Source: a virus. Taken from it: DNA of 64,000 nucleotides. The stretch covers positions 1-64,000 of IMG/VR virus record IMGVR_UViG_3300046697_000300. The stretch is one strand, 5' to 3'. Each line of letters begins with the position of its first letter. Positions within the stretch are counted from its first letter, which is position 1. Below are positions 4,875-34,506 of this stretch, in pieces. The notes under the pieces were generated by a model, which worked only from the letters and a program-made list of their open reading frames with translations, was not told the DNA's origin and did no database searches. The position numbers and the translations under genes are program-made.

Positions 4875-5699
4875 TTATTGCTGCTCTTCTACCGGCTTGC
4901 CGCCTGCCTCTGGATCCCCGGCGTCGTCGACGGCGTCGAGGAAACTCTCGGCAACCGCTTCGGGCTCGGGTTCGGGCTCATTTTCCGGCTGCGCTTCCAT
5001 GGTCTCGGCGACCGCCTCCGGCTCGAGGTGGGTCTGGCCCTCGTCGACGAAGGTCTGAGGTTCGGCGACGACGACGCCTGACTCGGGCTGCGCCTGGGGC
5101 TCCTCACCCGGTTGCGCACCGCCGGCCGTTGCATCGGCGGCGGCCTTGTCGGCCGCGTCGGCGTCGAGATCTTCGGCCGATGGGAGTTGCTGCTTCACGA
5201 TGCCGGAGCTGAGGGCTTCGGCGAGGGCGCCCGGTGTGCGCAGCGCGCGTGCCATCGCGCTCGCCTGAATGGCTTCGACGATTCTGTTCGAGGCCACCTT
5301 GTGCATCTCGACATCGGGATCGGCGATCAGCGCGAGCAAGGCCTCAACCTTGTCGAAGGGCTGCCAGCCGCTGGCCCTGGGGTTCGCGTTCATCTGCGCC
5401 TCGAGGTCCTTGGCGGCCTCGTCGCGTTCCGGGCCCGGCGGGAACTGGGCTGCGGCGGTCTGGCGCGCGTACTCGCCGGCAACGCCCAGGCGAATCGCGG
5501 CTGCGATCAGCATCGGGGCTCCGGTCACGGTTGACGGCACGCCGGCCTCGTCCAGGTAGATCAAGCTGAGGTGATGGCTGACCATCCTATACCAGCCGAG
5601 CCTCCCGATTGCGGGACTGCCGAGCGCAACGGCGCGATACCCAACGCCACCGACCACGTACAACACGGGGTCGCCCTTCTTGATTGCTGCAAAGTCCAT
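4875..5699 (-). CDS. hypothetical phage protein with strongly acidic C-terminal tail
   Basis: 274-aa ORF with GGAGGAatgtcATG at 5699. Lies between the portal candidate and the scaffold-like gene. Confidence 0.65.
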   Translation of the reverse strand: MDFAAIKKGDPVLYVVGGVGYRAVALGSPAIGRLGWYRMVSHHLSLIYLDEAGVPSTVTGAPMLIAAAIRLGVAGEYARQTAAAQFPPGPERDEAAKDLEAQMNANPRASGWQPFDKVEALLALIADPDVEMHKVASNRIVEAIQASAMARALRTPGALAEALSSGIVKQQLPSAEDLDADAADKAAADATAGGAQPGEEPQAQPESGVVVAEPQTFVDEGQTHLEPEAVAETMEAQPENEPEPEPEAVAESFLDAVDDAGDPEAGGKPVEEQQ

Positions 5700-10663: not shown

Positions 10664-11461
10664 TTAGTTGGTTTTCGGAACCCACGGCCGGCCCATGTGG
10701 CCGGTCCACGAGTCGCAGGTTTCGTTTCCCCCCGCGGCGTCGTAATAGCCGTAGGGGATCATCAGGTCGCCCTCGAGACCCCAACCGGAGCCCCAGGAGT
10801 TGCGTGCAAGTTCCACGCCCTTTGTGTCGTCGTAGCCGTAGACCAGCAGCTCGTGGCCGCCGACCGGCGTCTCGAACCTCGCGGGCAGCGGCAGCAATCC
10901 AGTCTCGGCCACCTCGTCGCTCTCGATCGCCTTGTACACCGGGATGCCGATCGTCCGGCAGTAGCCGGAGGCCAGCACCGACTTCGCGGTTGCAAGGCCC
11001 TCGTCGAACAGCACGCGGTGGTAGGCGCCGATCCTAAAGGAGTACGCGGCCGCATCCATCGGCGCGGTCGGCGCCTGGCCGATCGCGGTGTCAATAAATG
11101 GATCCGCCGGGTCCGGGCAGACGCCAAGCTGGTTGAGGACCTGAAACAGGGTGCGGCTGTCCGAGCCGTCGTCGGCAGGGAATGTGCCGTTCTTCATGCG
11201 TTCCTGGGCGTAGAGGAAGAGCGCCGAGAACATGGCCGGGCTAACGAGTTTGGTTGGGAAAGCGGAGGTGAACGCGCCGTAAAGCCAGTCGAGCCATCCT
11301 GCTCCTGACTGGCCTGTGCAGCTTCCGCTCGCGCCCTGGTCGCGCACCGGCCCGAGGCCTGGCTTCATGCTCACCGTGGCCGGACCCAAGGCCAGCGACC
11401 GCATCGCGAGGTGATCGCGAACGTCGAATGGGTCTTTCCGGACTCTGAAAATGCGGCTCAT
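10664..11461 (-). CDS. papain-like cysteine peptidase (C1 family-like)
   Basis: GSCTGQS (Cys), GGHELLVYGYDD (His) and NSWGSGWG (Asn) match the C1 catalytic-triad contexts. GAGGTccacATG. Confidence 0.7.
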   Translation of the reverse strand: MSRIFRVRKDPFDVRDHLAMRSLALGPATVSMKPGLGPVRDQGASGSCTGQSGAGWLDWLYGAFTSAFPTKLVSPAMFSALFLYAQERMKNGTFPADDGSDSRTLFQVLNQLGVCPDPADPFIDTAIGQAPTAPMDAAAYSFRIGAYHRVLFDEGLATAKSVLASGYCRTIGIPVYKAIESDEVAETGLLPLPARFETPVGGHELLVYGYDDTKGVELARNSWGSGWGLEGDLMIPYGYYDAAGGNETCDSWTGHMGRPWVPKTN

Positions 11462-11469
11462 GTGGACCT

Positions 11470-11685
11470 CTATTTCTCCGGCTCGTCCGGCGCGTCGTTC
11501 GTCTTGTGGCCAGCTGCGATTCTCACTGCGCCGGCCACCGTGCCCAGAACGGCGAACCCGATGGGCACCCAGCCCGGGCAGCCCTGGATGGCGATCGTGC
11601 CGGCGGCGGCCGAGCCAAAGGCGGTCATAAAGAAGCCGGCATACCCGGCCAGCGTTGTGGGGCTCATTCCAAAGAGTTTCGGCAT
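11470..11685 (-). CDS. holin-like small membrane protein (2 TM, charged C-terminus)
   Basis: 71 aa with two hydrophobic helices and a KTNDAPDEPEK tail. Lies immediately upstream of the peptidase genes. Confidence 0.5.
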   Translation of the reverse strand: MPKLFGMSPTTLAGYAGFFMTAFGSAAAGTIAIQGCPGWVPIGFAVLGTVAGAVRIAAGHKTNDAPDEPEK

Positions 11686-11737
11686 GGCGTTTTTCCCCTC
11701 TTTCGTGGCGATTTGGGCCCTTCGATTACCAACGCGC

Positions 11738-11956
11738 CTAGCGGTGCCAGGTGACGGTCACCGTCGGCGCGGCCAGGGTTGCTACGTTGTACTTCCCGGT
11801 CTCGATCACGTTCGGCGGCGTGCTCGGCAGCAGTGGCGGAGCCAGCGACGCGATCGTTGTCACGGCCGGCGCGCCCAGCGCGGGCGGGTAAAGTGCAATC
11901 AATTGCGCGGTCGAGGCCGGCGAAGGCGGTCCGGTCCATGCCGGCGTGAGGTTCGT
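11738..11956 (-). pseudogene. 3' fragment (72 codons + stop) of a lipoprotein gene split by the IS
   Basis: High-GC3 frame TNLTPAWTGPPSPAST...TVTVTWHR* has no start codon of its own. It begins exactly at the IS right-end boundary and is in frame with 13696..13848. Confidence 0.6.
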
Positions 11957-12140
11957 TTGATACTCCCCACGGATAAATCCGGGGGATTCTAGCGTTCTTT
12001 CGAACGCCTTAACTGTTTCAACCAGCGTAGCTGAATTTCTCCAGACTTACACACTGTCCGCAGTCGTTTAACGACTCCATGTATCCCAAGGCGTCGAGTA
12101 TCCTGATCCCTTCCGCTTTCAGATTTAGAGATGCGTTTCC
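11941..12140 (-). ncRNA. predicted TnpB guide RNA (omega/reRNA) region: tnpB 3' end + right end + 16-nt flank
   Basis: Inference from the known IS200/IS605 TnpB organisation. Hairpins at 11965-11985 and 11992-12007. 5' extent is not determinable by eye. Confidence 0.3.
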
Positions 12141-13193
12141 ATCCCGGCTATGATGACTTCCACAAGAAGGACAGTCCCACTCTCTATCTGAAAGAGTTAG
12201 GTCATTGTTTTTGTATCCGCATTCGCTGCACAGTTTCGTGCTTGGAAAGAACCTATCAACTTGGACTGCGTGCCTGTTATTCCAAAGTGATTTATACTTC
12301 CATTGTCGAACTGTTTCTCCGAATGCGGCATCGAGCATCGACTTAGCCAGCTTGGTTTTCGCAAGACCTTTGATGCTTAAATCTTCAAGACACAGTGCTG
12401 GATACTTTTCAACCAGACCATGCGTTAGTTGATGAGCAAAATTACTCCGTAGATTTGAAATCCGTTCATGGACTTTTGCAACAGAGACTACAGCTTTGGC
12501 ACGGTTACGACTACCTTTAACGCGACGGCACACCTTTTGTTGAGCTTTCTTTAGCTTTTGAGCATGACGACGGTAGAACTTTGGAACTGAGACCTCGCCC
12601 CCGTCAGACAGCGTTAGATATGTATTCAATCCAAGATCGCCACCTTGCATCTGCTCAGGTTTTACCTTTGGCAAACATTCTGTTAATTCAAACTCAGAAA
12701 CTAATATAACAAACCAACGACCCGTTGCTGTGCGCTTAAATGTCGCTGATTTTGTTTCACCGTCAATGATTCGTGATTGACGTATCTTTATCCAGCCGAT
12801 CTTAGGAACATACACTTTACCATCTTTTACCACTACTCTCTGTGGTATACGGAAGGTTTGTTTTGTACTCTTCTTGGTTTTGAATACAGGAAATCCGGCA
12901 TTCATCTTTGGGTTGAAGTGGTTATCGTATGCTCGTTTTAGATTCTTTAGAACCTGCTGCAAAGACTGAGAATCAAAGTCATACATCCACGGCCTCGACT
13001 CTTTGAATTTAGTGAGTTCCACGGATAATCGTGACTGAGATATGCTTTTCTTGTTTTCTTTGTAGAATGTCCGGCAGCAATCCAAAGCAAGGTTCCACAC
13101 AAGCCTAGATGCCCCCGCTTGGCACAAAAGTTTCTGTGCTTCGTCAGACGTTGGCTCCATGCGGAATTTGAACACCTTGCGCTGTTTAGACAT
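12018..13193 (-). CDS. tnpB: TnpB (RNA-guided RuvC-type nuclease of IS200/IS605)
   Basis: VFKFRMEPT N-terminus, GGDLGLN (RuvC-I), CLEDLSIKG (RuvC-II), CSECG...CPSCG zinc ribbon and RDGNASLNL (RuvC-III). ATG 13193 chosen over the TTG at 13208. Confidence 0.9.
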   Translation of the reverse strand: MSKQRKVFKFRMEPTSDEAQKLLCQAGASRLVWNLALDCCRTFYKENKKSISQSRLSVELTKFKESRPWMYDFDSQSLQQVLKNLKRAYDNHFNPKMNAGFPVFKTKKSTKQTFRIPQRVVVKDGKVYVPKIGWIKIRQSRIIDGETKSATFKRTATGRWFVILVSEFELTECLPKVKPEQMQGGDLGLNTYLTLSDGGEVSVPKFYRRHAQKLKKAQQKVCRRVKGSRNRAKAVVSVAKVHERISNLRSNFAHQLTHGLVEKYPALCLEDLSIKGLAKTKLAKSMLDAAFGETVRQWKYKSLWNNRHAVQVDRFFPSTKLCSECGYKNNDLTLSDREWDCPSCGSHHSRDGNASLNLKAEGIRILDALGYMESLNDCGQCVSLEKFSYAG

Positions 13194-13587
13194 TTTTCTG
13201 ATTTTCAACGTACTGTTTTATTACTTCCAGTGGAGACCCGCCAACTGTTGAAACAAAATAGCTATTCGTCCACAACGTCGGCAACTTTGATTTCAGCGTT
13301 CTAAACTCATTTCTCAGCGTGTGAGATGAAACACCCTTCATGTTCTTGACAAGGCGGTGAATGCCAAACTGAGGATCAATTTCCACGAGTACGTGAACAT
13401 GGTCTGGCATGATTTCTAGCGCAATTACTTCTGCCTTATACTTCTCTGCCGCTTGTCGAATAACAGATTCGCACCGTGCTGCAATATCACCAATCAAAAC
13501 ACTGCGCCTATACTTCGGAGTCCATACCACATGGTACTTGCTCGAATACACCACATTTAAGTTCGATTTGTAGTCTTCTAGTGCCAT
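13186..13587 (-). CDS. tnpA: TnpA, Y1 HUH transposase of IS200/IS605
   Basis: YHVVWTPKYRR, HUH motif HVHVLV and catalytic Tyr context WTNSYFVSTVGG. ATG 13587 chosen; the track start TTG 13623 coincides with a -35 hexamer. Confidence 0.9.
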   Translation of the reverse strand: MALEDYKSNLNVVYSSKYHVVWTPKYRRSVLIGDIAARCESVIRQAAEKYKAEVIALEIMPDHVHVLVEIDPQFGIHRLVKNMKGVSSHTLRNEFRTLKSKLPTLWTNSYFVSTVGGSPLEVIKQYVENQKNV

Positions 13588-13593
13588 AACAAA

Positions 13594-13623
13594 ACTATAC
13601 AGTACATCGGTGTATATTGTCAA
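13594..13623 (-). promoter_or_regulatory. putative tnpA promoter inside the IS left end
   Basis: TTGACA (13623-13618), 18-nt spacer, TATAGT (13599-13594). The ATG follows 6 nt later, so the mRNA would be nearly leaderless. Confidence 0.4.
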
Positions 13624-13695
13624 GAACTATTTTTCTACGCAAAACACGCCTTATATCCCCATGCCTGAAGGCAGGGGCTTTACGGCGCTTTCTCG

Positions 13696-13848
13696 GTAAA
13701 TGTACCCACAGGTGTAGCCGGTCGGGCACGCCGGCGCATTGTTTGAGACGGTGACGGTGGGCGGCGGGGTCACCGGCGCCTGGCCGTGGCTGCAGCCGAC
13801 CAGTGCGGCGGCGAGCACAAGGACCAGAAATTCGTTGCGTAGCTTCAT
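13696..13848 (-). pseudogene. 5' fragment (51 codons) of the IS-split lipoprotein gene
   Basis: MKLRNEFLVLVLAAALVGC lipobox. Track ORF 13651..13848 runs 14 codons into the IS before stopping. The junction falls exactly after TTAC. Confidence 0.6.
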
Positions 13849-13858
13849 TTGAATCCTC

Positions 13859-14236
13859 CTACGGGTTGATGGTTACGGTTGGCTTCGCCAGCGCTGGCGG
13901 CGACGGAAAAGACGGCACGGCGACTACTGCGACGTTGCTGTTGGGGCTGGTGACGCCCTGGGCGTCGACGCTCCTGACCACATAGTCGTAGGTCTGGAGC
14001 GGTTGAATCGTGAGGTCGAGGTAGCTGGTCACGGCGACCGGCGCCGTGTTGAGTTGCTGGTAGGTTGCGAGTCCGTCGGGCGAGCGGTAGGCATTGTAGC
14101 CGGCGACCGGATCCGGCGACGATGCCGGCGCATCCCAGGTCAGCGTCACGGTCTCCTGGGTCACCTTGGCCTGGGCCTCCGCGGATCTCGCCCATACCGC
14201 CAACACAACCAGCCCGATGGCAATCGCTCTCAGCAT
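13859..14236 (-). CDS. exported FN3-like domain protein
   Basis: ATG 14236 after AAGGAG. Signal peptide MLRAIAIGLVVLAVWARSAEA. VTLTWDAP...YNAYRS...YDYVVRSVD pattern typical of fibronectin type III folds. Confidence 0.65.
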   Translation of the reverse strand: MLRAIAIGLVVLAVWARSAEAQAKVTQETVTLTWDAPASSPDPVAGYNAYRSPDGLATYQQLNTAPVAVTSYLDLTIQPLQTYDYVVRSVDAQGVTSPNSNVAVVAVPSFPSPPALAKPTVTINP

Positions 14237-14246
14237 CAATCGCTCC

Positions 14247-14504
14247 TTACCGGAGAAGGTGAATATAACCCAGCGCACTCAGGGCCACCAGGGTCGCCGG
14301 CACGCCCGCCAGAAAAACGATGAACCAGAGCACGCCCTTGACGAAGCTCTCAAAGTTGCGCCGGGTGGTTTTGAAGTCGCGCCACTCGTTTACCATGCCA
14401 TCGTCTCCATACTTGCCGAAAAGGATCACGTCCGTGATCCGGCCCCAAATCTGGAGCTTGAGCAGTTCTCTCTCGACGCTCTCGTGCCCAGGTTCATACG
14501 GCAT
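14247..14504 (-). CDS. hypothetical membrane protein (C-terminal TM)
   Basis: 85-aa ORF with GGGGGAAGAG before the ATG. Hydrophobic VLWFIVFLAGVPATLVALSALGYI segment. Confidence 0.55.
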   Translation of the reverse strand: MPYEPGHESVERELLKLQIWGRITDVILFGKYGDDGMVNEWRDFKTTRRNFESFVKGVLWFIVFLAGVPATLVALSALGYIHLLR

Positions 14505-14552
14505 CTCTTCCCCCGCCCCGCTCGATCTTCCTGACTATCTACTACCGCTGCG

Positions 14553-14768
14553 CTAAATCTCCGGCGTGTGCCGCCCCTTCTCGGCCTTCACACCCTTGGC
14601 GTGGGCTGCCGATGCCGTGAGCTTCAGAAGCTCTGTCATGCGGCTGTTAAAAAGCACATGGACCTCCTGAATCTTGCGCTGATTCCGCAGACCGACGATA
14701 AGGCCGAATAACGCCACAAGACTAGGCGGTAAGGCAGAAATCATGGCAACTTGAATGCCTTCCGTCAC
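14553..14768 (-). CDS. hypothetical small membrane protein (1 TM)
   Basis: GTG 14768 after GGAG. N-terminal hydrophobic helix. Confidence 0.55.
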   Translation of the reverse strand: MTEGIQVAMISALPPSLVALFGLIVGLRNQRKIQEVHVLFNSRMTELLKLTASAAHAKGVKAEKGRHTPEI

Positions 14769-14771
14769 GGG

Positions 14772-14945
14772 TTACTCCTTGTTTGGCTTTTCCGCTTCAT
14801 CGCTAAACACGTTCCCGCGCCCGCCGAGGATCGTGCGGAGACTGGTCAGCACGCGCTTGGTGTAATTGTCGCCCTCAAGAGCACCGCGAGTGTAAAGCTC
14901 TTCGCGCATTGCTTTGTCAAGCTGCTCCCAACTTATCGCGTCCAT
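14772..14945 (-). CDS. hypothetical small protein (57 aa), below the ORF-track cut-off
   Basis: GGGAGGatcaATG at 14945. Hand translation gives MDAISWEQLDKAMREELYTRGALEGDNYTKRVLTSLRTILGGRGNVFSDEAEKPNKE*. Confidence 0.5.
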   Translation of the reverse strand: MDAISWEQLDKAMREELYTRGALEGDNYTKRVLTSLRTILGGRGNVFSDEAEKPNKE

Positions 14946-15155
14946 TGATCCTCCCAGCCAATTTCAGCAACCTTGCCCCACGTCGCATCGCCATCCTCTG
15001 CGCAAGCTCCGCTGGAATCCTTGGTCTGCATCCTCCCCGGCTCTTGCGTCGCGCAGGCGGGGATGGAAGTGGCGGAGGCTCTTCCCTCGTGACCATCTCC
15101 CAGAGGAACAGCGGATCGGTCTCCCTAATCCGCCGCATCTCCGCGCGCATACCTA

Positions 15156-15668
15156 TCACCGCAACGCCACGACTTTCAAACCACTCGGGGCCGGGAGCTT
15201 CTTCGCCAAGGTCGGCTGAGGACCGACAGCATCGAAAGGCTTCTCCAACTCCGCCACTGTTGGAGAAGAGAGCGTAGGAGCAAGAGGAACGCCCGGAACC
15301 ACGACAGGGCCGACAACGTTTGAAGGCGCACTGTTTTGCGCGGCTTGAACCGTTTCCACGTCATAGCACTTTGTCAGGCCAGTCGCATTGGAATCCGTGA
15401 AATTCGGAGTGCTCGGGCGCGCGGTCGGCGTGGTGATTTCCTTCCAGTTTGTGCTGCTGGTCGGATCGCACGAACCACTCACGGATTCGGCGTAGAACGC
15501 ATAGGTGCATGGCGCTGAGGTTGTGCATCCAGCCCAGTTTCCACTCACTAATGGAGCGATAGCCACAAGCACGACACTATGCCCAGAGGAGGCAGGAGGA
15601 ACCTGCGCGTGACAGCCAACCGAAATCGTGACTGCAATCAGGGCGAGTGTTGCGAGTGTGCGTTTCAT
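15156..15668 (-). CDS. lipoprotein, FN3-like
   Basis: MKRTLATLALIAVTISVGC lipobox. Cys-containing beta-rich body resembling the IS-split gene product. Confidence 0.65.
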   Translation of the reverse strand: MKRTLATLALIAVTISVGCHAQVPPASSGHSVVLVAIAPLVSGNWAGCTTSAPCTYAFYAESVSGSCDPTSSTNWKEITTPTARPSTPNFTDSNATGLTKCYDVETVQAAQNSAPSNVVGPVVVPGVPLAPTLSSPTVAELEKPFDAVGPQPTLAKKLPAPSGLKVVALR

Positions 15669-15686
15669 GTATTCTGCCTTGTTTGC

Positions 15687-16019
15687 TTAGTTTGTACCGT
15701 AAATACTCACGGTGTCGCCAACAGCGAAATTCGTACCTTCAGGTGATAAAGTTATACTAGTGATGGTTGCTGTATTGTGCCAAATGCCTTCACTTGAGAA
15801 ATTCCACGCATAGTCAGAACCGGGACCACCGGCACTACAAGCAGAAGATTCTGTCTTGTAAAGGTTGGTATTAACGTAGTCGGTAATTATAATCTTTCCA
15901 CCGCCTCCGTAACCACTCGCACCTAATGAGCACGACTGGGCTTGTGAAGCGCCATTGTCAGTTAACCTACCTGGACCCGTTCCTCCCGCCGCATAAATAG
16001 TGGTGTAGTCATAATTCAA
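15687..16019 (-). CDS. hypothetical Gly-rich protein, low G+C
   Basis: 110-aa ORF with a TTG start. Many A/T-ending codons, unlike the rest of the phage. Follows the 844-aa beta-helix protein. Confidence 0.5.
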   Translation of the reverse strand: MNYDYTTIYAAGGTGPGRLTDNGASQAQSCSLGASGYGGGGKIIITDYVNTNLYKTESSACSAGGPGSDYAWNFSSEGIWHNTATITSITLSPEGTNFAVGDTVSIYGTN

Positions 16020-16069
16020 ACCTGAATCCCCGTTAAATTTAATGTCTACCTCGGTAACAGCGACGTTAG

Positions 16070-18589
16070 TTAATTCGCGCTACAGGCAATAGCGTAAGTG
16101 CCGCCAGCCGTTGCGGTGTGTGTAACCGTTACCGTCCCCGTTGTTGGCACAACCGCCGTCCAGGGGACGATTGTGGTTGTGCTGTTCTGTGTTGCCGTGC
16201 AGTTGCTCGCCGACGTTACCCAAGAACAGGCGAGCGCGTCTGTCGTCGCAGCCGTGGTTGTTAATGTTCCACAATTCTCAAGCAGTTTCGACGAGGAAGT
16301 AAGAAGGGAACTGTCAGGAAATTCGAGGCCATTTGAAGGGTGAAAATATGGCGTTGTTTCATTTTGCCAGTACGCAGCATAACCGCTGCCGGTTTCGGCG
16401 TAGACACGGTCACCACTAACCCCAGCATCTAGGCAGAGGCCGCTTGCATAGGAGCCAAACGCCCCGAAGAGAGCGCAGTTCTTGTAGCCCGTGGTCGATA
16501 CCTGTAATCCGTTGTTTGCGCCTCCGTTAGACCCCGCTACAGATGATCCGTTTGGATAAAAACCGTTGCCATAAAGATCAAGCGAAGTGTTTATCCTGCT
16601 GCTGGCATCAATGCTGTTGATGGTCATTATTGCATCGGTAAAGTACGCGGAGCACGTACCCGATGATGAGCTTATCGTCACTGTCATGTCGTAGACGGCG
16701 GAGTTTTGTGGGAGTCTGATAGGGCTTCCGAGTATCCCAGCTGTCCACACTCCGGCAACATTCACGGTGTTTGCGCCACCGCTGGTCCCGGAAATTGTTG
16801 AGCCAGATGAGTCTACTGCGTAAGAGTTGACGCTGGAAGTACACCCTGAACCCCATGAGCTAGTCACACCCTGAATCTGGAATGTCCCTCCGACAACCGC
16901 GCCGGTAGGTACTTTGAGTTGCTGATAAATTTCGACTGTCTGCCCAGAAGTCGCAGTCAGTTCCGCTCCATAGGCGCCGGAATGAAGCGCTGCGGATGTA
17001 ACTGAAACCGTACCCGTTGACGATAGTGTTGTTGACCATCCAGTCAAGTCCCCGGTGCGAAAGTTCCCGTTTGTTAGAAGTGATTTATAGGCACCCATTG
17101 CCACGAACCCATAGTTAGATGGATCATTGTCGAAAGTGCCGACGAACGGCCCACCAAGATTTTCCAGCTGGCGTCCTACTGGCGCAGTCACATTGAGATC
17201 GGGGCGATAACAAGGACCGGCCACTCCTTGTAGGGTCGTGTTGGGTCCAAGGACGATCCCATAGGTAGCCGTAACGCTTGGAGCAACGCTGAAATAGGTG
17301 CTTGTAACGTAACCAGAGGGCGGGCAATCTGTTGTGAAAAGCGTGTTGTCTATATAAAGCGGGCCATCGCCTCCTGTTACCGATACATAGTGAGGCAACC
17401 AAGTTCCGAAGTCACCACCCCCGGGATTCTCGAAATGGCTTCCGTGCACCCAAGAAGTACCATTCGTTTGAGAAAGTTCCACGTTGTCAAATGAATCGTT
17501 ATTGAAGTGGATTTCCCCATCGCTAACTATTACAGGACCGCCGTCAGCGAACATCATGTTTTCGAAAACCATGTTTTCGCCGAAATTATCTCCTGGTCCC
17601 GGTGTACTCATTGAGAGAGTTTTTGCATTGTCGGCCCATCGCCCGTTTTCAGTCTTGATTCGCCACACGTTATTGTACATCACCGCCGCATTTGTGAATC
17701 CATAGATATTTACCGAATCAATAACTTGAGTGTTAAACCAGTGGGTGCCGTCGCCATAGTGCAGCCCATCCATCGCAAAGTACAAACCAGGTGAGGGATA
17801 ACCAAGTAGGGCAATCCCCTTTATCGCGTACCCAAATACGCCGTGCATCGGGTAGGTAGGATCTGATTGATACATGGTAATTCCCGCGACTCCCTCGCCT
17901 GCATCGGCATTCCACTGCAAAATCGTATGTCCGCCGTTGGAGTACCATGGGGCCTCATCTGAGATGACAGTAAAGGAGCCATGCACAACGCAGATAGCAT
18001 TGGAAGGAAATTGGAGGGAGGAAGAGGCCGCCTGCGCAGCCGTGTTAGCGGCAGATATTGCAGTTGTATCATCCGTAGAGCCGTCACATTTAGCGTTGTA
18101 TGGGGCTGCAATCACGCTGATTGATCGATTTATGCTCGATACCGCACTGGCAGCCGCGACGGTGCCTGTGAACGATGCGCTTGTACCATTGAGTGCGCCG
18201 GTCAGCGTGCCACCGGAGAGAGGGAGGTAGGTGCCAGTCGAATTGATGGTCACCTCCCCAGTCCCGCCAGATGGAGTGATAGTGATGTTCGATCCAGGGA
18301 TGATCTGCGTCACCCCGCCGAACCCCGAGCCGAGGCAAGCGGAGAGCGTTACGCATGGCGTCCACTGGCCGAGCGACGTGTTGAAGCCGTAAAAGGCAAA
18401 AGCCTGCGGCGTACTCTGCGCAGGCTCCGAGGTCGATGGGTTGGTGATCTTCTCAAACTGGCCGGCGGTCGCGTTCCACTGGTAGAGCGCGATCGGCGTC
18501 GGCTGCAGCCCGATGACCTGGCCTCGCACACCGAGCGCAGCGCACGCGGCAAGCGCAAGCAACCCGACAATCCTCGCGAGGTTTCGCAC
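16070..18589 (-). CDS. exported tailspike-like / pectate-lyase-fold protein
   Basis: Signal peptide RNLARIVGLLALAACAALGVRGQ. NAKCDGSTDDTTAISAANTAA matches the N-terminal motif of pectate-lyase-superfamily (tailspike-type) proteins. GTG 18589 (after AAGGG) preferred to TTG 18604. Confidence 0.7.
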   Translation of the reverse strand: MRNLARIVGLLALAACAALGVRGQVIGLQPTPIALYQWNATAGQFEKITNPSTSEPAQSTPQAFAFYGFNTSLGQWTPCVTLSACLGSGFGGVTQIIPGSNITITPSGGTGEVTINSTGTYLPLSGGTLTGALNGTSASFTGTVAAASAVSSINRSISVIAAPYNAKCDGSTDDTTAISAANTAAQAASSSLQFPSNAICVVHGSFTVISDEAPWYSNGGHTILQWNADAGEGVAGITMYQSDPTYPMHGVFGYAIKGIALLGYPSPGLYFAMDGLHYGDGTHWFNTQVIDSVNIYGFTNAAVMYNNVWRIKTENGRWADNAKTLSMSTPGPGDNFGENMVFENMMFADGGPVIVSDGEIHFNNDSFDNVELSQTNGTSWVHGSHFENPGGGDFGTWLPHYVSVTGGDGPLYIDNTLFTTDCPPSGYVTSTYFSVAPSVTATYGIVLGPNTTLQGVAGPCYRPDLNVTAPVGRQLENLGGPFVGTFDNDPSNYGFVAMGAYKSLLTNGNFRTGDLTGWSTTLSSTGTVSVTSAALHSGAYGAELTATSGQTVEIYQQLKVPTGAVVGGTFQIQGVTSSWGSGCTSSVNSYAVDSSGSTISGTSGGANTVNVAGVWTAGILGSPIRLPQNSAVYDMTVTISSSSGTCSAYFTDAIMTINSIDASSRINTSLDLYGNGFYPNGSSVAGSNGGANNGLQVSTTGYKNCALFGAFGSYASGLCLDAGVSGDRVYAETGSGYAAYWQNETTPYFHPSNGLEFPDSSLLTSSSKLLENCGTLTTTAATTDALACSWVTSASNCTATQNSTTTIVPWTAVVPTTGTVTVTHTATAGGTYAIACSAN

Positions 18590-18606
18590 GTTCCGCCCTT
18601 TCAAAA

Positions 18607-18879
18607 CTACTTAGGTTTCGCCGGCTCCGCCGGTTTCGCCGCCTTGGCTGCCGCGGCATCCTCCGCCGCGATCCGGTCCAGCCAATGCTGGCACTCCTGA
18701 ATTGCGCCGGCGATTGCCTGCACGTTAGCGATGGCCTGCTGTTGCTGCTGTTGTAGCTCGAGCAGCCGCCGCTCAATGTCTTCGCGCTTGACGACTGAGG
18801 CCCCCGTCGGCGCTGCCGGCGCTGGAGCCGCCGGCTTTGCCTCCCCCCGTACTCGTATTTCACTGAAGTCTTCCACCAC
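18607..18879 (-). CDS. hypothetical coiled-coil protein with a Q6 run
   Basis: 90-aa ORF, GTG start, overlaps the upstream gene end by 20 nt. Confidence 0.5.
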   Translation of the reverse strand: MVEDFSEIRVRGEAKPAAPAPAAPTGASVVKREDIERRLLELQQQQQQAIANVQAIAGAIQECQHWLDRIAAEDAAAAKAAKPAEPAKPK

Positions 18880-20746
18880 CCGTTATGCTCACGTTGCCGC
18901 TCATTCCCGCATTCGATGAACTGCCGCCGCCCTGATACTCCAGGGCTCCTATCGCTGGGGGATTTGGGCGCGTAAACTGCTGAAAGTCCCAAGTCAAATA
19001 TGTATTGCTGGCTCCCTGCGACTCCACTGGTCCTACTTGAACCCCCGCGCCGATGGCGGGACTGGTCGCCTGCAATTCGTAGTGCGTCCATGCTCCGTCA
19101 GCGGCGCTGACAAACAACGGATTCTCAATCGTGCCGTATGTCGCGGCGGGCGTTGTACTCGATGGCGTGGCTGCGCTGTAGAAGATGTTGTTTGATCCGG
19201 CCAGGGTGCCATTGGTTCCGTTAGCCGCGAAAAATACGTTCTGGCTGCTCGTATAGGTGTAGGCAGGCTGATAGATGATGTTGTTCGTGAAGTTGTCGGT
19301 GACGTTGTTCTGCGAAGTATTAACCTGGATGGCCCCCGACTCACCCTCGCCAGAAAAAGTGTTCAGAATCGAGGAACAATCGAACATCGTATTGTTATAG
19401 AAGTAGACGGTTCCCGCGCCAGTCGCCGTACCGCTTCTTTTATCCGCGATGCAATTATGGGGATTGTCCGTGCCCCCATCAGACGCTCTGGCTAGTCCGC
19501 AGTGGTGCAGGATGTTGTTGTAAACCAGAATGTATCCCGACGACGGATCGATGGTCGCCAGGTTGATGCAACTCCCGTTCACGTCTGCGATGTCATTGTC
19601 GTGAATGGAGAAGTTATAGTATCCCGATGAACTGTCCTGATTGACCTGAAATCCATTGTACGCGGCAGTATTGCTAATTCGGTTCCACGCAAACTCCCAC
19701 CCATCTCCCGTAAAGTAGACATCGTGGAACTGTTTATTGGAGCCATTTGGAAGCGCGGTCGTGTTGTTGGAGATATTCACGATATTATTGCCGAGGGCTT
19801 CTATTCCGCTCACATACGTAGAAGCTCTGACATCAGCCGCTTCAATTCCCCCACCCGCCTCGTTGTAGCAATCCGGGCACTCCAGCGTGTTGCCCACAAT
19901 ACGAAAATAATCCCACGCATGAAGCGCAGAAGTGTTCGATCCCTGCCCAATCAGTGTCATGCCAGAGATCACAGTGTAGCTCGCGTCTCCGGTGCTGCCG
20001 ATGCCATTCATGCTGTCAACTGTCCCGCCAAGAATCGCTGTAGCCCCAGGTCGTGCTTGAATTGTGATGAAGCTGGAGGATGTCCACCCACCTTTATCCA
20101 TTGTCAAGGCCCCACCCTCTCCGCTACCAGCGAAATACGGATAGTTGACGCCATCCAGAAAGACAAGGACATCTCCATTGGCGATGCAATGGTAATAGGT
20201 GTACGGGGTCCGATAAGTTGAATATCCTCCGCTTGTAACCGGCACATTCGTACTTGTCAGCGTCCACGGGCTGCCGTACGTGCCACTTCCACCCGCCCCG
20301 CCGCCCGCCGTGCCGTTCTCGATTGTGGTGCAATTGCTGCCTGGAGTATCATTTACGATCCCCGAACCGATGAACCAGATGTTGCCACTGCGTACCGTAA
20401 ACGTAAGGTTGGAGCAGGAACCACCGGAAGTCGTAACTACGATATTGCCTGTGCCAGTTGTTCCGCTGGCAATCTGTACGCTGATCTGGTCGTGCTCGCC
20501 GGTCACATCGTTGTTTGAACCCCACACGAGATACTGCGCCACGGGCGTGCCGTTGACGGTCACTGTAGACGTTCCCTGGCTCGATCCGAAATTGTGGCCG
20601 TAGATGCTCAGGTAGATTCCATCGCCGCCTTCGCCGCCCGTCGCCGGTCCAGAGAGCACGTCCTGATACAGACAGACAGGAGCGGCTGCAAAAAGTGGAA
20701 GCGTGGCGAAGAGCACAGCAAAGAGAATAAGTAGTCGTTTTATCAT
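18860..20746 (-). CDS. exported IPT/TIG + right-handed beta-helix repeat protein
   Basis: Signal peptide MIKRLLILFAVLFATLPLFAAA. IPT-like segment YLSIYGHNFGSSQGTSTVTVNGTP. Repeated NN(I/T)x motifs typical of parallel beta-helix repeats. TAATG coupling to the next gene. Confidence 0.7.
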   Translation of the reverse strand: MIKRLLILFAVLFATLPLFAAAPVCLYQDVLSGPATGGEGGDGIYLSIYGHNFGSSQGTSTVTVNGTPVAQYLVWGSNNDVTGEHDQISVQIASGTTGTGNIVVTTSGGSCSNLTFTVRSGNIWFIGSGIVNDTPGSNCTTIENGTAGGGAGGSGTYGSPWTLTSTNVPVTSGGYSTYRTPYTYYHCIANGDVLVFLDGVNYPYFAGSGEGGALTMDKGGWTSSSFITIQARPGATAILGGTVDSMNGIGSTGDASYTVISGMTLIGQGSNTSALHAWDYFRIVGNTLECPDCYNEAGGGIEAADVRASTYVSGIEALGNNIVNISNNTTALPNGSNKQFHDVYFTGDGWEFAWNRISNTAAYNGFQVNQDSSSGYYNFSIHDNDIADVNGSCINLATIDPSSGYILVYNNILHHCGLARASDGGTDNPHNCIADKRSGTATGAGTVYFYNNTMFDCSSILNTFSGEGESGAIQVNTSQNNVTDNFTNNIIYQPAYTYTSSQNVFFAANGTNGTLAGSNNIFYSAATPSSTTPAATYGTIENPLFVSAADGAWTHYELQATSPAIGAGVQVGPVESQGASNTYLTWDFQQFTRPNPPAIGALEYQGGGSSSNAGMSGNVSITGGGRLQ

Positions 20747-21729
20747 TACAGGCTCCTCAGAACGGTGCAGGTTGCGGCCCAGTAACCACTAGTAATGGTT
20801 CCTGAAACGGTTAGTGTTGTTGAGGTTGAATTGTAATCTTGAATCGTACCGCCATTATCCCCATCGATGTGTGCGCGTATAGTGCCGCTCAGGGCAGTTG
20901 ATGCAGTGTTCCCGTAGTCGGAAATTGAGCAAACAAGCCAGTCGTTTGCTTCAGGCGCAGTGACGGAGATTGAATATGTGGCGCCGTTTCCGGTTGCCGT
21001 CGTTGAACTGCCGATATGCAGCACGCCTGAATACTCACTGACGCAGATGCTAGAAGCGTGTCCACTCTTGAGAGGACTGGCCGTGAAAGTCATTGCCCCG
21101 GTGCGCGTGTTGGCATCGGCTCCAGTCCCGAACATCAGGGCATTGTAGTAACTATTCGCCGTCACGGTTGATCCTTGTTGCGAATAGCTGTTATAGGTTC
21201 CGCTGTCCACAACAGTCGGCGTTGGAGCAGTTCCAAGCGTGTCGATAGCTAAGTAGATCGTGCTTCCGCTAGTCGCTGAGTAACTCGCGGTTGTCAGAGT
21301 AGTTGCGCCGCTACTAAGCGTCTGTGTACATGCAGGAGTACCGATGTGAGCGATGCTGGCCGCGCTTATCGTGTACGTCGCGTTTCCCACGCTCGAATCC
21401 GTGTAGCCCACAAGCGTTGCTATGGCTTGCACAGTCTGCGTGGTTGAGACCGTGATCGGCGTGGTGTACGTGCTGGTCGTTCCGCCTGAGCAGAGATTGG
21501 CTGATTCTGTGGGCGTTGTTCCGTCCGTGGTGTAGCACAGAACCGCGAGAGGAGTCGCGGTGGAGATCGTCACTGTCTGTGTGCTGCTGTAGGTTCCTGC
21601 GCCGGGTGAGAATGTCGGCGTAGAGGCTGTAGAGCTTCCACCTCGGTTTGCCGCTGTCCATTGGCCAATCGTGTACTGACCAAACGCAGGAACAGAAAAG
21701 AGTAGGAGGAATAAAATCAGCTTCTTCAT
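20746..21729 (-). CDS. exported protein with chitobiase/hexosaminidase C-terminal-like (Fn3-associated) domain
   Basis: ATG 21729 (ATGA overlap). MKKLILFLLLFSVPAFGQ signal peptide. PTFSPGAGTYSSTQTVTIS...CYTTDGTTPT motif. Confidence 0.7.
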   Translation of the reverse strand: MKKLILFLLLFSVPAFGQYTIGQWTAANRGGSSTASTPTFSPGAGTYSSTQTVTISTATPLAVLCYTTDGTTPTESANLCSGGTTSTYTTPITVSTTQTVQAIATLVGYTDSSVGNATYTISAASIAHIGTPACTQTLSSGATTLTTASYSATSGSTIYLAIDTLGTAPTPTVVDSGTYNSYSQQGSTVTANSYYNALMFGTGADANTRTGAMTFTASPLKSGHASSICVSEYSGVLHIGSSTTATGNGATYSISVTAPEANDWLVCSISDYGNTASTALSGTIRAHIDGDNGGTIQDYNSTSTTLTVSGTITSGYWAATCTVLRSL

Positions 21730-23597
21730 CGTGCCCCCACATTGAACGTCACCGCGCCCGGAGTGCTTATTGAACTGGCCGTCTGATTGCAAATCTTGTA
21801 GTTCAGATATCCAGCAGTCGGCCATGTGTCCAAGATCAATCCACCCGTGCTGCCCCAGCCAGTTGCAGCACTCGTATCAGCGCTTGGTGTGATCAAAAAT
21901 GTCATGCTTGTCGTGACGCCAGTCATGGCGATCTGGACCGTGGAATTGCAGGTATTGGCCGAGACAGACCCCGTGCTGGTGGTAAATGTTGTATTCGCAA
22001 CTTGGATCACCGCGCCTGCTGCGGTAGGCGTTGCTGCGGCCATGTTCGCGGATGGTAGCACTCCACTTACATCCGCTGTCAGACTCACCGCCGAAGAGGT
22101 CATTGCTGATTCGTTCACACCATCGCCTGTAGCTGGTGCAGCCGCGTGCAGGATGCCCGCCGTGACAGTCGCTGGCAGTTTGAACACGTAAGCTGTGCCG
22201 CCTGTAACTGGGGCCGCGAATCCTGCGGAGTTTGCGGGGAGTGCGGGGATATTGCGTGTGCCTGCCGGTAGGCTCAATGCGGAGGGTGTCGTGCCGGTAA
22301 GCTGAACGCTCGTGAACGTGCCTGCCGCTGGAGTTGTGCCGCCAATGACCACGCCATCGATCGTGCCGCCTGTAATGGCAACTGAAGCGGGGCCGTAGGG
22401 ATTGGCGACGGAGATCGCACCGCTGGAATTGCTTATTGTGGTCCCGTCCGGCTTCACACCGCCCAGGATAGACGAGGTTGCTGTTGGCAGAGTATATGCT
22501 GAAGGCACCGCGCCACCGTCTGCTATCACGTCTCCCGAAGTGGCGTTCATTACAGCCAAATGTCCAACCGTCGCTCCAGAACCCGGCCCGGTAACGGGGT
22601 TGGTCAGCGCGGATTGTTTGCCGTTGAACGTGGCCCAGTCAGCTGAGGTTAGATAACCGTTAACAGAGTTAGTAGCCGCTCCCAATGTCGTCTGAATGTT
22701 CGCTGAGGTCGCCGCTGTTATTGCCGTGCCACTAGAGAACGCCGCGATATTCGGACTCACAGGCGAGCCGCTGGTGGTCACTGTGCCGCTACCGGAAGGC
22801 ATACAACTCCCGCCGGAACTGGTCAAGCACTTGAGTTGGTGCGCGGTCGAATCCAGATAGAGACGATCATAGGTGGATGCTGGGTTGGCTGGGGCTGCGA
22901 TCTCCAGCGCGTCCTGGTAGCTGGTTCCAGCGCCGCCGTTGAAGCCGGTTCCGCTCGCTGATGGGCCGGTTACGCCCAGCACCCCGCCCGAGCAGGCGTA
23001 GAACGTCCACGGGTTGGTGGTCACATCGACCACGCCTGTCTTCGCGCTGCAGGTGGCCGCGGCGAGGATCGTCGCCGCTGTCACCGCCGAGTCCTGCGAG
23101 TGTATGTTTGCGACCAGCTTGTACCACTCCGGGCTCAGAACGACGGTCATCAGCGCAGGTTCATGCGTGCCGCCGACCGCGTTCAAAGCCTCCTGGAGGC
23201 CGCCCGTGCCTGATTGCAGCGTAAATGTGGAGTGCTGGTTCACCGGCGCGAGGTTGACGCCGCAGCGCAAGTCTGTCGGCGTGAGGTAGCTCGACGGGGT
23301 AAGCACTTCGCTCGTAGCCTGGTTCTGGTCCTGAATCAGGACCGGAGCAAGGGCGAGCGTGTCGGCGAAGGCGTAGAACGTCGGGCTGTCGGCAAAGTCC
23401 AGTTGCGTGACCTGGCACCCGTTTACGTTCGAGAAGGTGTACGTGTTGGGCTTCTGGCCTTGAATCACCCAGCGGCCGTAGTTATCCGCGTAAACCCAGG
23501 GCGGCGCCCCGGCCGGATTGAACCCCTGAGCCAATACACACGCCGTCGCCGTCAGCGCCAGCACCAAAACCGCGAGAAGCCCGGTAAAGGTCTTCAT
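21726..23597 (-). CDS. exported fibre-like protein, paralog A (shared ~195-aa N-domain, long Thr/Ser/Gly/Ala-rich C-part)
   Basis: Signal peptide MKTFTGLLAVLVLALTATACVLAQG. N-domain aligns by eye with 23643..24650. Confidence 0.7.
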   Translation of the reverse strand: MKTFTGLLAVLVLALTATACVLAQGFNPAGAPPWVYADNYGRWVIQGQKPNTYTFSNVNGCQVTQLDFADSPTFYAFADTLALAPVLIQDQNQATSEVLTPSSYLTPTDLRCGVNLAPVNQHSTFTLQSGTGGLQEALNAVGGTHEPALMTVVLSPEWYKLVANIHSQDSAVTAATILAAATCSAKTGVVDVTTNPWTFYACSGGVLGVTGPSASGTGFNGGAGTSYQDALEIAAPANPASTYDRLYLDSTAHQLKCLTSSGGSCMPSGSGTVTTSGSPVSPNIAAFSSGTAITAATSANIQTTLGAATNSVNGYLTSADWATFNGKQSALTNPVTGPGSGATVGHLAVMNATSGDVIADGGAVPSAYTLPTATSSILGGVKPDGTTISNSSGAISVANPYGPASVAITGGTIDGVVIGGTTPAAGTFTSVQLTGTTPSALSLPAGTRNIPALPANSAGFAAPVTGGTAYVFKLPATVTAGILHAAAPATGDGVNESAMTSSAVSLTADVSGVLPSANMAAATPTAAGAVIQVANTTFTTSTGSVSANTCNSTVQIAMTGVTTSMTFLITPSADTSAATGWGSTGGLILDTWPTAGYLNYKICNQTASSISTPGAVTFNVGAR

Positions 23598-27822: not shown

Positions 27823-28070
27823 CAGCACCTTTTCAACGGACGGCAGGAGGTCGCGGGACTTACTGCCGCCCGGATTAGCGGCCCGACTTGGCCCGGGCTG
27901 CTAACTGAATCCGTAATTGCGTGGGCGACGGTCCCTTTCGTGCTGGACCCGACTTGTATTGCGTCATTCACGTCGCAACCTACGCCCGCGCAAAATCGTG
28001 GGCCCAGCTACCGCTGCTCGCCTTCGCCAGGCCCCAAAGCCGGCGAAGCAGCAGAAAGCCGGCACCGAGG

Positions 28071-28199
28071 TTAATCGAGAGTCAGGTCCGCCTCCAGAAA
28101 AACCATCTCAAGCGGTCTGCGTTTGATCCCGGTGTAATCTCCGCTCGCGATCCGGTGCTCTTCGCCTTCGATGTAAAACTGCAACCCGTTGAGGCTCAC
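28071..28199 (-). CDS. possible 42-aa ORF coupled by a GTGA overlap
   Basis: GTG 28199 overlaps the stop of 28196..28570. VSLNGLQFYIEGEEHRIASGDYTGIKRRPLEMVFLEADLTLD. It could instead be the frameshifted tail of the upstream gene. Confidence 0.3.
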   Translation of the reverse strand: MSLNGLQFYIEGEEHRIASGDYTGIKRRPLEMVFLEADLTLD

Positions 28200-34158: not shown

Positions 34159-34506
34159 ATGAGAAACGGAATTTTCACGTTCGCTGGCTGCCTCGTCCTC
34201 ACCGTCGCGCTCGTCGCCGCGCAGGCGCCACCAACGCCACCGCCAGCGGCGCCGCCTGCGGCCCCGGCGGCGGCGCCGCAACCAGCCGAGCCTCCCGGCC
34301 CAGCGCCGCAGCTCACCAGCACAGAAGCCCTCGAGGTCGAGAACCTCACCCTCAAAATGCAACTGCTCAACGGCCAGTTTAACGAACTCCTCACGCAGAT
34401 CAACGGCGAGCATCCCGGCTGGCAGTTCCATCCTGAGCTCAACCGCTTCGTTTACGTCACCCCCCAGCCAGCCCCGGCGCCCGCGGCGAAGGAGCCCAGG
34501 AAGTAA
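34159..34506 (+). CDS. exported Pro/Ala-rich protein (115 aa)
   Basis: TAAGGAG before ATG 34159. Signal peptide MRNGIFTFAGCLVLTVALVAAQA. TAATG coupling to the chaperonin gene. Confidence 0.6.
   Translation: MRNGIFTFAGCLVLTVALVAAQAPPTPPPAAPPAAPAAAPQPAEPPGPAPQLTSTEALEVENLTLKMQLLNGQFNELLTQINGEHPGWQFHPELNRFVYVTPQPAPAPAAKEPRK

Follow-up and report, generated by a model that had tools for sequence, protein, structure and literature searches.

We analysed a stretch of 64,000 nucleotides (nt) of viral DNA, positions 1 to 64,000 of the IMG/VR record IMGVR_UViG_3300046697_000300 (hereafter the window), which probably belongs to a temperate phage whose host was most likely an acidobacterium of peat or soil. 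On the late-gene strand of this phage a gene for a small lipoprotein is interrupted by an insertion sequence (IS) of the IS608 type. The interruption is accompanied by a loss: the IS stands in the place of exactly 168 bp of the gene that lie, in relatives free of the element, between two copies of its target tetranucleotide TTAC. The features of the locus, in the order in which the gene is read, are listed here with their window coordinates.

13696 to 13848, minus strand: 5' fragment of the lipoprotein gene, codons 1-51, with signal peptide and lipobox LVGC, ending in CGYIY; 0 mismatches in 153 nt to the 540-nt wild-type gene (contigs L001-L010)
13696 to 13699, minus strand: TTAC, the left cleavage and target tetranucleotide, outside the IS; equals positions 150-153 of the wild-type gene; TTAC is present at five of five fully bounded sites
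11957 to 13695, minus strand: IS608-type insertion sequence, 1,739 bp, 44% G+C; homology to other copies stops exactly at both coordinates
13657 to 13681, minus strand: left end, with the guide AAAG (13678-13681) directly 5' of the foot of an imperfect hairpin with a bulged T (IPL, 13657-13677)
13594 to 13623, minus strand: putative sigma-70-like promoter TTGACA-18-TATAGT upstream of tnpA, 11 of 12 consensus matches
13186 to 13587, minus strand: tnpA, Y1 HUH transposase of 133 amino acids (aa), HVH motif at residue 63 and catalytic-type Tyr at 124
12018 to 13193, minus strand: tnpB, predicted RNA-guided endonuclease of 391 aa, downstream of tnpA with an 8-nt overlap
11957 to 12100, minus strand: probable scaffold of an omega RNA, extending from the 3' end of tnpB across the intergenic stretch into the right end; assigned from TnpB biology (PMC8612924)
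11957 to 11989, minus strand: right end, with the guide GAAT (11986-11989), a hairpin with a bulged T (IPR, 11965-11985), the tail AGTATCAA and the cleavage site TCAA (11957-11960)
11937 to 11956, minus strand: right flank ACGAACCTCACGCCGGCATG, predicted guide part of the omega RNA (by analogy with PMC8612924); follows TTAC in wild-type alleles
11738 to 11956, minus strand: 3' fragment of the lipoprotein gene, wild-type codons 108-179 and stop; 5 mismatches in 219 nt, the first 98 nt being identical

The element is set off from the phage DNA by its composition, G+C changing in sharp steps at both ends between 0.44 inside it and 0.63 in the remaining window sequence. On the minus strand, with a slash for the boundary, the left junction is TGT GGG TAC ATT TAC / CGAGAAAGCGCCGT AAAG CCCCTGCC-TTCA-GGCATGGGG and the right one GAAT CCCCCGGA-TTTA-TCCGTGGGG AGTATCAA / ACG AAC CTC ACG. 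The left hairpin, CCCCTGCC-TTCA-GGCA(T)GGGG, starts 18 nt past TTAC; the right one is CCCCCGGA-TTTA-TCCG(T)GGGG, and the tail that follows it stops at 11957. Such imperfect subterminal hairpins on the same strand replace terminal inverted repeats, which are absent, and the target was not duplicated, the flanks being ACATTTAC on the left and ACGAACCT on the right. Both hairpins are the minimum-free-energy folds of the ends as single-stranded DNA. The energy of the right one stands apart from that of shuffled sequences (z = -2.9), and that of the left one (z = -0.9) is indistinguishable from shuffles by energy alone. The left and right end motifs each occur once in the window, with 0 occurrences expected from shuffles; together with the identical element having the same boundaries at other loci, this is far beyond chance. 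The published scheme of IS608 comprises a TTAC target, AAAG as the left guide sequence and a TCAA end (PMC3201880), and on these features the element can be assigned to the IS608 group of the IS200/IS605 family. An earlier note on this DNA, made from its letters alone, had described an IS608-like element between 11957 and 13695, low in G+C, apparently recent, and inserted without target duplication into a lipoprotein gene. All of this was borne out: TTAC, TCAA and the bulged-T hairpins lie where it put them, copies at other loci have the same boundaries, near-identical copies exist elsewhere, and the gene with the LVGC lipobox is indeed interrupted.

The tnpA product matches Pfam PF01797 (Y1_Tnp, E = 1.9e-42) and the NCBIfam IS200/IS605 equivalog NF033573 (144.7 bits against a cut-off of 55, E = 1.6e-42). 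Of the solved structures, ISHp608 TnpA matches it best (2a6m, E = 5.6e-49), and Tyr 124 is found within KQYVENQ. TnpB contains HTH, OrfB_IS605 and Cas12f-like TNB domains (PF12323, PF01385, PF07282), scores 291 bits with NF040570 against a cut-off of 100 (E = 1.6e-86) and can be aligned end to end with ISDra2 TnpB (8h1j/8exa, E = 2e-66). The RuvC-type motifs GGDLG (184), LEDL (269) and RDGNA (350) and both CxxC pairs are present, and the catalytic motifs are intact; a nuclease role is predicted for this protein. In the last ~144 nt of the IS, 12 of 42 predicted base pairs keep their pairing through double changes, as judged from eight relatives that represent only about four distinct lineages. 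The fold of this region has z = -2.4, and no Rfam family was matched within the IS at gathering or E <= 1 thresholds. This structured 3' region would fit an omega RNA of TnpB.

Contigs bearing the element were recovered from many samples by exact look-ups of both IS proteins. The identical 1,739 bp, with 0-1 mismatches, were present at five fully bounded sites including that of the window, mostly on phage-like metagenome contigs; at each of the five TTAC lies directly to the left, TCAA forms the terminus, and similarity ends exactly at the positions equivalent to 13695 and 11957. Four further contexts are bounded at the right end (RE) only. Three of these RE-only contexts (L017, L019 and L030) share the tail GGGGAGTATCAA; the fourth, L028, is a divergent right-end variant in which homology stops inside the right end and the tail is GGGGAGGATGTCAA, 10 nt long as quoted for IS608. 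Identity to the element is 99.9-100% over 1,494-1,700 bp in L017, L019 and L028, and 100% over 262 bp in L030. The right hairpins of L017 and L149 show compensatory changes. G+C of the flanks on the contigs with exact copies ranges from 42 to 65%, and the other host contigs, of 42-52% G+C, are phage-like as well (DnaB, HNH, methylase, sheath protein). Because near-identical 1,739-bp copies are found at different loci, the element is judged to be mobile and recently active.

The closest genomic relatives of the IS were found in metagenome-assembled genomes (MAGs) of Acidobacteriota. One of them, in the Terracidiphilus sp. MAG JBAVYF010000490.1 (L149:687-1039), is a 353-bp non-autonomous derivative, preceded by TTAC and ending in TCAA, which consists of the left end with a TTGACA-type promoter motif and a TATA-like hexamer, the last ~240 nt of the tnpB/omega region (81% identical) and the right end; its presence there suggests that Acidobacteriota are hosts of this IS lineage. 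No record of the phage database showed DNA similarity to the IS, the plasmid database gave matches to the tnpA portion only (67-79% identity), and the exact end motifs were not found in IMG/VR or in the GTDB representative genomes. Metagenomes were scanned with one degenerate left/right-end pattern, and the matches listed were mostly other IS608-like elements with a shared hairpin, L030 being the only exact copy among them. Dozens of the listed matches (L029-L148) are IS608-like elements of many environments that show no other relationship to one another, yet over the first ~50 nt of the left end (CGAGAAAGCGCCGTAAAGCCCCTGCC...GGGG) their conservation is 92-100%.

The interrupted gene is predicted to encode a bacterial-type lipoprotein. 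In its lipobox region, MKLRNEFLVLVLAAALVGC, LVGC occupies residues 16-19, of which G18 and C19 do not vary among 11 homologues. As called, the open reading frame (ORF) has 65 aa (13651-13848) and runs 14 codons into the IS. When the 123-aa product of the two joined fragments was used as a query, 11 homologues were obtained, all of 177-180 aa and all with 56 residues that the joined product lacks. The closest of them (P0001) is near-identical to both fragments and carries the 56 extra residues between CGYIY and TNLTPAW; the other ten, although more distant, also have 177-180 residues and not 123. At the level of DNA, the wild-type gene in the ten IS-free contigs (L001-L010) reads ACATTTAC/AGCTGG...(168 nt)...GGTTTAC/ACGAAC, and TTAC occurs at positions 150-153, 291-294, 302-305, 318-321 and 387-390 of its 540 nt. 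The left end of the IS adjoins the TTAC at 150-153 and the right end adjoins the base after the TTAC at 318-321, so that exactly the 168 bp (56 codons) between the two are missing from the window, with the IS in their place. One of the IS-free contigs with an intact gene, L007, is 100% identical to the window over the 5,673 bp up to the first TTAC.

A simple insertion, as envisaged in the earlier note, is not what the relatives show: the two ORF fragments are non-contiguous in all ten IS-free contigs, being 168 bp apart, which is the very observation that the note had named as refuting its picture. The empty-site pattern that the note proposed to look for was not found in IMG/VR, and the IS-free relatives carry instead the 168 bp between the flanks. 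Its suggestion that precise excision would restore the gene is correct in its arithmetic, since 153 nt and 219 nt do join in frame to give 123 aa, but not in its consequence, because the 168 bp are absent from the window. Excision would leave an internally deleted 123-aa allele rather than the parent gene, and about half of the predicted beta-sandwich core would be lost. This estimate comes from a moderate structure model of the lipoprotein, a weak fn3/Ig-like beta-sandwich (predicted local distance difference test score, pLDDT, 68; best Foldseek E = 0.0095), in which the missing segment makes up much of the better-predicted core. In the 11 homologues the segment includes many invariant residues, three cysteines among them. 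No family in Pfam or PHROGs was matched by the lipoprotein.

We consider it highly probable that an autonomous, recently active IS608-type element entered this gene, which is taken here to be non-essential, and that the TTAC-to-TTAC deletion was made by the IS machinery itself. An alternative would be that the structure was created by assembly, from two alleles with the IS at the first TTAC and at the TTAC 318-321, respectively, whose junctions were cross-joined by assemblers across the 1.7-kb repeat. The IS is a multi-copy exact repeat in metagenomes, and contigs do break inside it (L152/L157, L153, L162-L164). However, the same join, with both junctions on one contig, emerged independently from the assemblies of at least four samples (L012, L015, L160 and the contig of the window). 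The left junction, present on nine contigs, always reads ACATTTAC followed by the left end; the right junction, checked in 11 loci on at least ten distinct contigs, reads in 11 of 11 as the right end followed by ACGAAC; the flanking 54-aa fragment P0012 is likewise found on nine contigs. The complementary junctions that cross-joining requires, GGTTTAC/CGAGAAAG and TATCAA/AGCTGG, were never seen among the loci read, and an exact look-up of the 121-aa protein that reading through the former would give was negative. Samples that carry the IS allele are 3300046698, 3300037095, 3300037092, 3300050026, 3300048780 and SRR23247732; in 3300037092, 3300037095 and 3300050026 it occurs together with intact alleles. 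We give very little credence to an artefact of this kind. Just as improbable is a deletion that preceded the element, in which slippage between two TTTAC sequences occurred first and the IS later entered the joint TTAC by coincidence; the IS-free joint would then read TACATTTAC-ACGAACCTC, and excision would restore a true 123-aa parent. The endpoints do share the 5-nt repeat TTTAC, the loss of 168 bp is in frame, and the right flank of the IS-bearing strain is unlike that of all recovered IS-free relatives, so its direct ancestor is unsampled. Nevertheless, the insertion would have to strike one particular TTAC among 201 in the non-IS part of the window (130 on the minus, coding strand against 71 on the plus strand, a nearly twofold difference), which puts the odds of an independent insertion at the joint at about 1 in 200; the odds that a deleted segment ends in TTAC by chance are about 1 in 100. 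Moreover, the segment is kept in all 11 homologues, with the invariant residues and the predicted core described above, and no 123-aa allele was found by exact look-ups in a collection of 15 billion proteins, in which only fully called gene products are visible. Microhomology repair of a cut made by TnpB was also considered as the origin of the deletion and rejected: the IS-occupied site is devoid of the transposon-associated motif (TAM) that TnpB would need, and apart from the TTTAC pair no microhomology is available for such a repair.

How the IS machinery could have removed the segment is a separate problem. One plausible explanation would involve TnpA, which in IS608 recognises the target TTAC through the left guide AAAG and was demonstrated in vitro to carry out strand transfer between an IS end and a single strand bearing TTAC (PMC3201880, PMC5027513). 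The IS would insert 3' of the first TTAC (150-153); TnpA, holding both integrated ends on single-stranded DNA, would then cut the right end at TCAA; the left guide would pair with the TTAC 168 nt downstream (318-321), as with an integration target; and the 3'-OH of the right end would be joined to the sequence after that TTAC (ACGAAC), the 168 nt leaving as a circle. The same structure could arise by recombination, if copies of the IS were inserted at TTAC 150-153 and at TTAC 318-321, in one or in two co-infecting genomes, and homologous recombination removed one copy together with the 168 bp. As both TTACs are on the same strand, the two copies would be direct repeats, and the exact junctions observed would follow from well-established reactions only. 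This route also fits the high activity of the element, of which five fully bounded sites hold identical copies besides the RE-only contexts, and the readiness of phages to recombine, the present group being highly mosaic around the site; moreover, two copies would make the genome 3.5 kb too long, so that the deletion product would be at an advantage. On the other side, it needs two insertions within 168 bp among some 200 TTAC sites, and neither of the intermediates with a single insertion was found: the 15 billion proteins include none of the products predicted from reading through an IS at the other in-frame TTACs (318-321, 291-294). Two-copy recombination is in our opinion a genuine possibility, short of an even chance. 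The data do not separate the two routes; we slightly favour the TnpA-catalysed one, a tentative choice in which we have less than even confidence.

Several observations weigh against deletion by the IS machinery in general. Neither an intermediate that has the IS at one TTAC but keeps the 168 bp nor an excised allele was found, with the same limit of the look-ups to fully called gene products. The contigs are short-read assemblies that cross a 1.7-kb repeat. Past the first 98 nt, the right flank differs from that of every IS-free relative (86-94% identity), and the exact IS-free ancestor was not seen. At two other sites, L013 and L016, the ORF stays open across the joined flanks, as for a simple insertion into a gene, so the deletion is not a regular outcome of insertion; the empty site was recovered for neither. 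Finally, no published case of an adjacent deletion made by TnpA was found in a literature search.

A further site, L011, was tried as a second example of an IS-linked deletion. There, homology to an intact 210-aa gene of L016 (L011:3058-5290 against L016:1893-2525) stops exactly at the TTAC that precedes the IS, and the right flank of the element lacks the 63 codons that complete that gene. The C-terminus varies from 112 to 205 aa among homologues and no close IS-free relative is available, for which reasons the site was rejected as a second case; it is ambiguous whether it represents another IS-linked rearrangement or merely a variable C-terminus.

The presence of tnpB raises the possibility that the altered allele spreads. 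In the TnpB systems studied, the guide of the omega RNA is the flank beside the right end of the transposon, and the TAM is the transposon target motif (PMC8612924). The right flank in the window is the wild-type sequence that follows TTAC 318-321, identical for 98 nt, and the omega RNA of this copy is predicted to carry the guide ACGAACCTCACGCCGG, which follows TTAC in wild-type alleles. IS-free relatives are the predicted targets because the guide flank follows TTAC in their alleles: TnpB would cut them during co-infection, and repair would copy the IS with its deletion into them. Such homing would account for the occurrence of the disrupted allele in two phage backgrounds and at a mosaic boundary. 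The contig L154 (1-1490) combines an upstream gene of the L001 type (100% identity) with the IS-disrupted lipoprotein gene (ACATTTAC followed by the left end) and one single-nucleotide difference in tnpB; it represents either the disrupted allele in a second phage background or a chimeric contig. To the right of the IS (window 11299-11858, minus strand), identity to L007 is ~86% after the first 98 nt, as against 100% for 5.7 kb to the left of it, and by this comparison the IS lies at a mosaic boundary. The second background and the drop in identity are compatible with the prediction of homing. The combined proposal, that TnpA makes adjacent deletions in vivo with a nearby TTAC as target and that TnpB and its omega RNA drive homing of the IS and the deletion among co-infecting phages, seems to us less likely than not.

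In relatives of the L001 type, the product of the gene upstream of the lipoprotein gene has 238 aa (L001:9260-9976 against window 13859-14278, minus strand) and consists of the fn3 domain of the window's 125/139-aa protein and a C-terminal Cys-rich module of ~95 aa, which is 76% identical to residues 35-127 of the lipoprotein. The module has a near-copy of TTAC with the predicted TnpB target, GGTTTAC/ACGAACCTCACCCCGG, differing by one mismatch.

There is reasonable support for regarding the window as phage DNA: it has an integrase, DUF5131, a Peptidase_M15_3 gene, tail-fibre-like fn3 proteins and a chaperonin-like gene. Further support comes from the contig Ga0494740_000408 (L152, L157) of 64,288 bp, both ends of which fall within the IS, in tnpA on one side and ~127 nt before the right junction on the other; this pattern suggests that a whole phage genome of ~65 kb, circular or circularly permuted, was broken at the repeat by the assembler. 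Downstream of the interrupted gene lies one more small gene:

11470 to 11685, minus strand: small hydrophobic (holin-like) protein, 71 aa, hydrophobic in two stretches and charged at the C-terminus

This gene had been labelled as a holin in the earlier note. Its position upstream of peptidase genes (a papain-like one at 10664-11461 and the Peptidase_M15_3 gene further on) agrees with that label and makes it plausible; a family match is missing, no Pfam or PHROG entry being hit. In all ten IS-free contigs another allele, an 81-aa version, takes its place. On the other side of the IS, the tail-fibre-like block at window 14000-22000 has 50-59% G+C as compared with 63-68% elsewhere and is the part most divergent from the relatives, which suggests an exchanged module. 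Elsewhere in the window there are an Rfam CyVA-1 RNA match (27993-28071, minus strand; 42.5 bits against a gathering threshold of 41.4, E = 3e-6), a Cpn60/GroEL-like gene (34506-36266, plus strand; E = 1e-55), an ORF of 3,682 aa (44478-55526, minus strand) and a tRNA-Leu (5177-5268).

Among known systems, the element is most readily compared with IS608 (ISHp608) of Helicobacter pylori, a member of the IS200/IS605 family. It has the gene order tnpA-tnpB in common with IS608, whose TnpA is the closest solved structure (2a6m); in both, the element lies 3' of an unduplicated TTAC, has TCAA as its right terminus and carries the left guide AAAG immediately before an imperfect hairpin that contains a bulged T (PMC3201880). 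It differs in spacing, the right cleavage site being 8 nt from the hairpin foot instead of 10 nt (PMC3201880) and the left spacing 18 nt instead of the 19 nt quoted for IS608, and also in its setting, a high-G+C phage context from peat and soil metagenomes in which insertion is coupled to a 168-bp deletion. TnpB resembles that of ISDra2 from Deinococcus radiodurans in its end-to-end alignment, in the intact RuvC and zinc-finger motifs and in the structured 3' region with covariation; by analogy, the right-end flank would be the guide and the target TTAC the TAM (PMC8612924). Unlike in ISDra2, the predicted TAM is TTAC and not TTGAT, and the setting is phage versus phage rather than a bacterial chromosome, with nuclease activity, omega RNA and homing all being predicted here. 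As a compact protein of 391 aa with a predicted TTAC TAM, this TnpB is a further candidate for genome-editing screens.

Insertion sequences are uncommon in phage genomes. Elements of the IS608 group are nonetheless already known there: ISCaje4 and other IS200/IS605 elements reside in the Campylobacter phages CP220 and CPt10, and the positions of related copies differ between related phages (PMC2853527). The present element is like ISCaje4 in being a tnpA and tnpB element of the IS608 subgroup resident in a phage genome (PMC2853527). It is unlike it in that exact copies occur in several unrelated phage-like contigs, that the empty site is known from ten relatives, and that a deletion bounded by targets accompanies the insertion. 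The target-to-target deletion is a modestly unusual feature, and the current understanding of the IS200/IS605 family is unchanged by these findings. The exact element at several sites in different phage-like genomes, together with IS-free relatives from the same samples, provides a natural system in which the movement and persistence of IS608-type elements and TnpB in viruses can be followed.

The TTAC-to-TTAC deletion indicates that such insertions are not always cleanly reversible, and if it is true that TnpA made it, a genome-rearranging reaction would be added to the repertoire of a transposase thought to be seamless. Classical adjacent deletions arise from intramolecular transposition by DDE transposases and have arbitrary endpoints. 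The rearrangement described here resembles these, as well as the products of recombination between two copies, in that DNA beside an IS end was lost, the IS was kept, and one endpoint lies exactly at the IS terminus. It differs from classical adjacent deletions in that both endpoints are the tetranucleotide target of the element, and in that the candidate enzyme is a single-strand HUH transposase.

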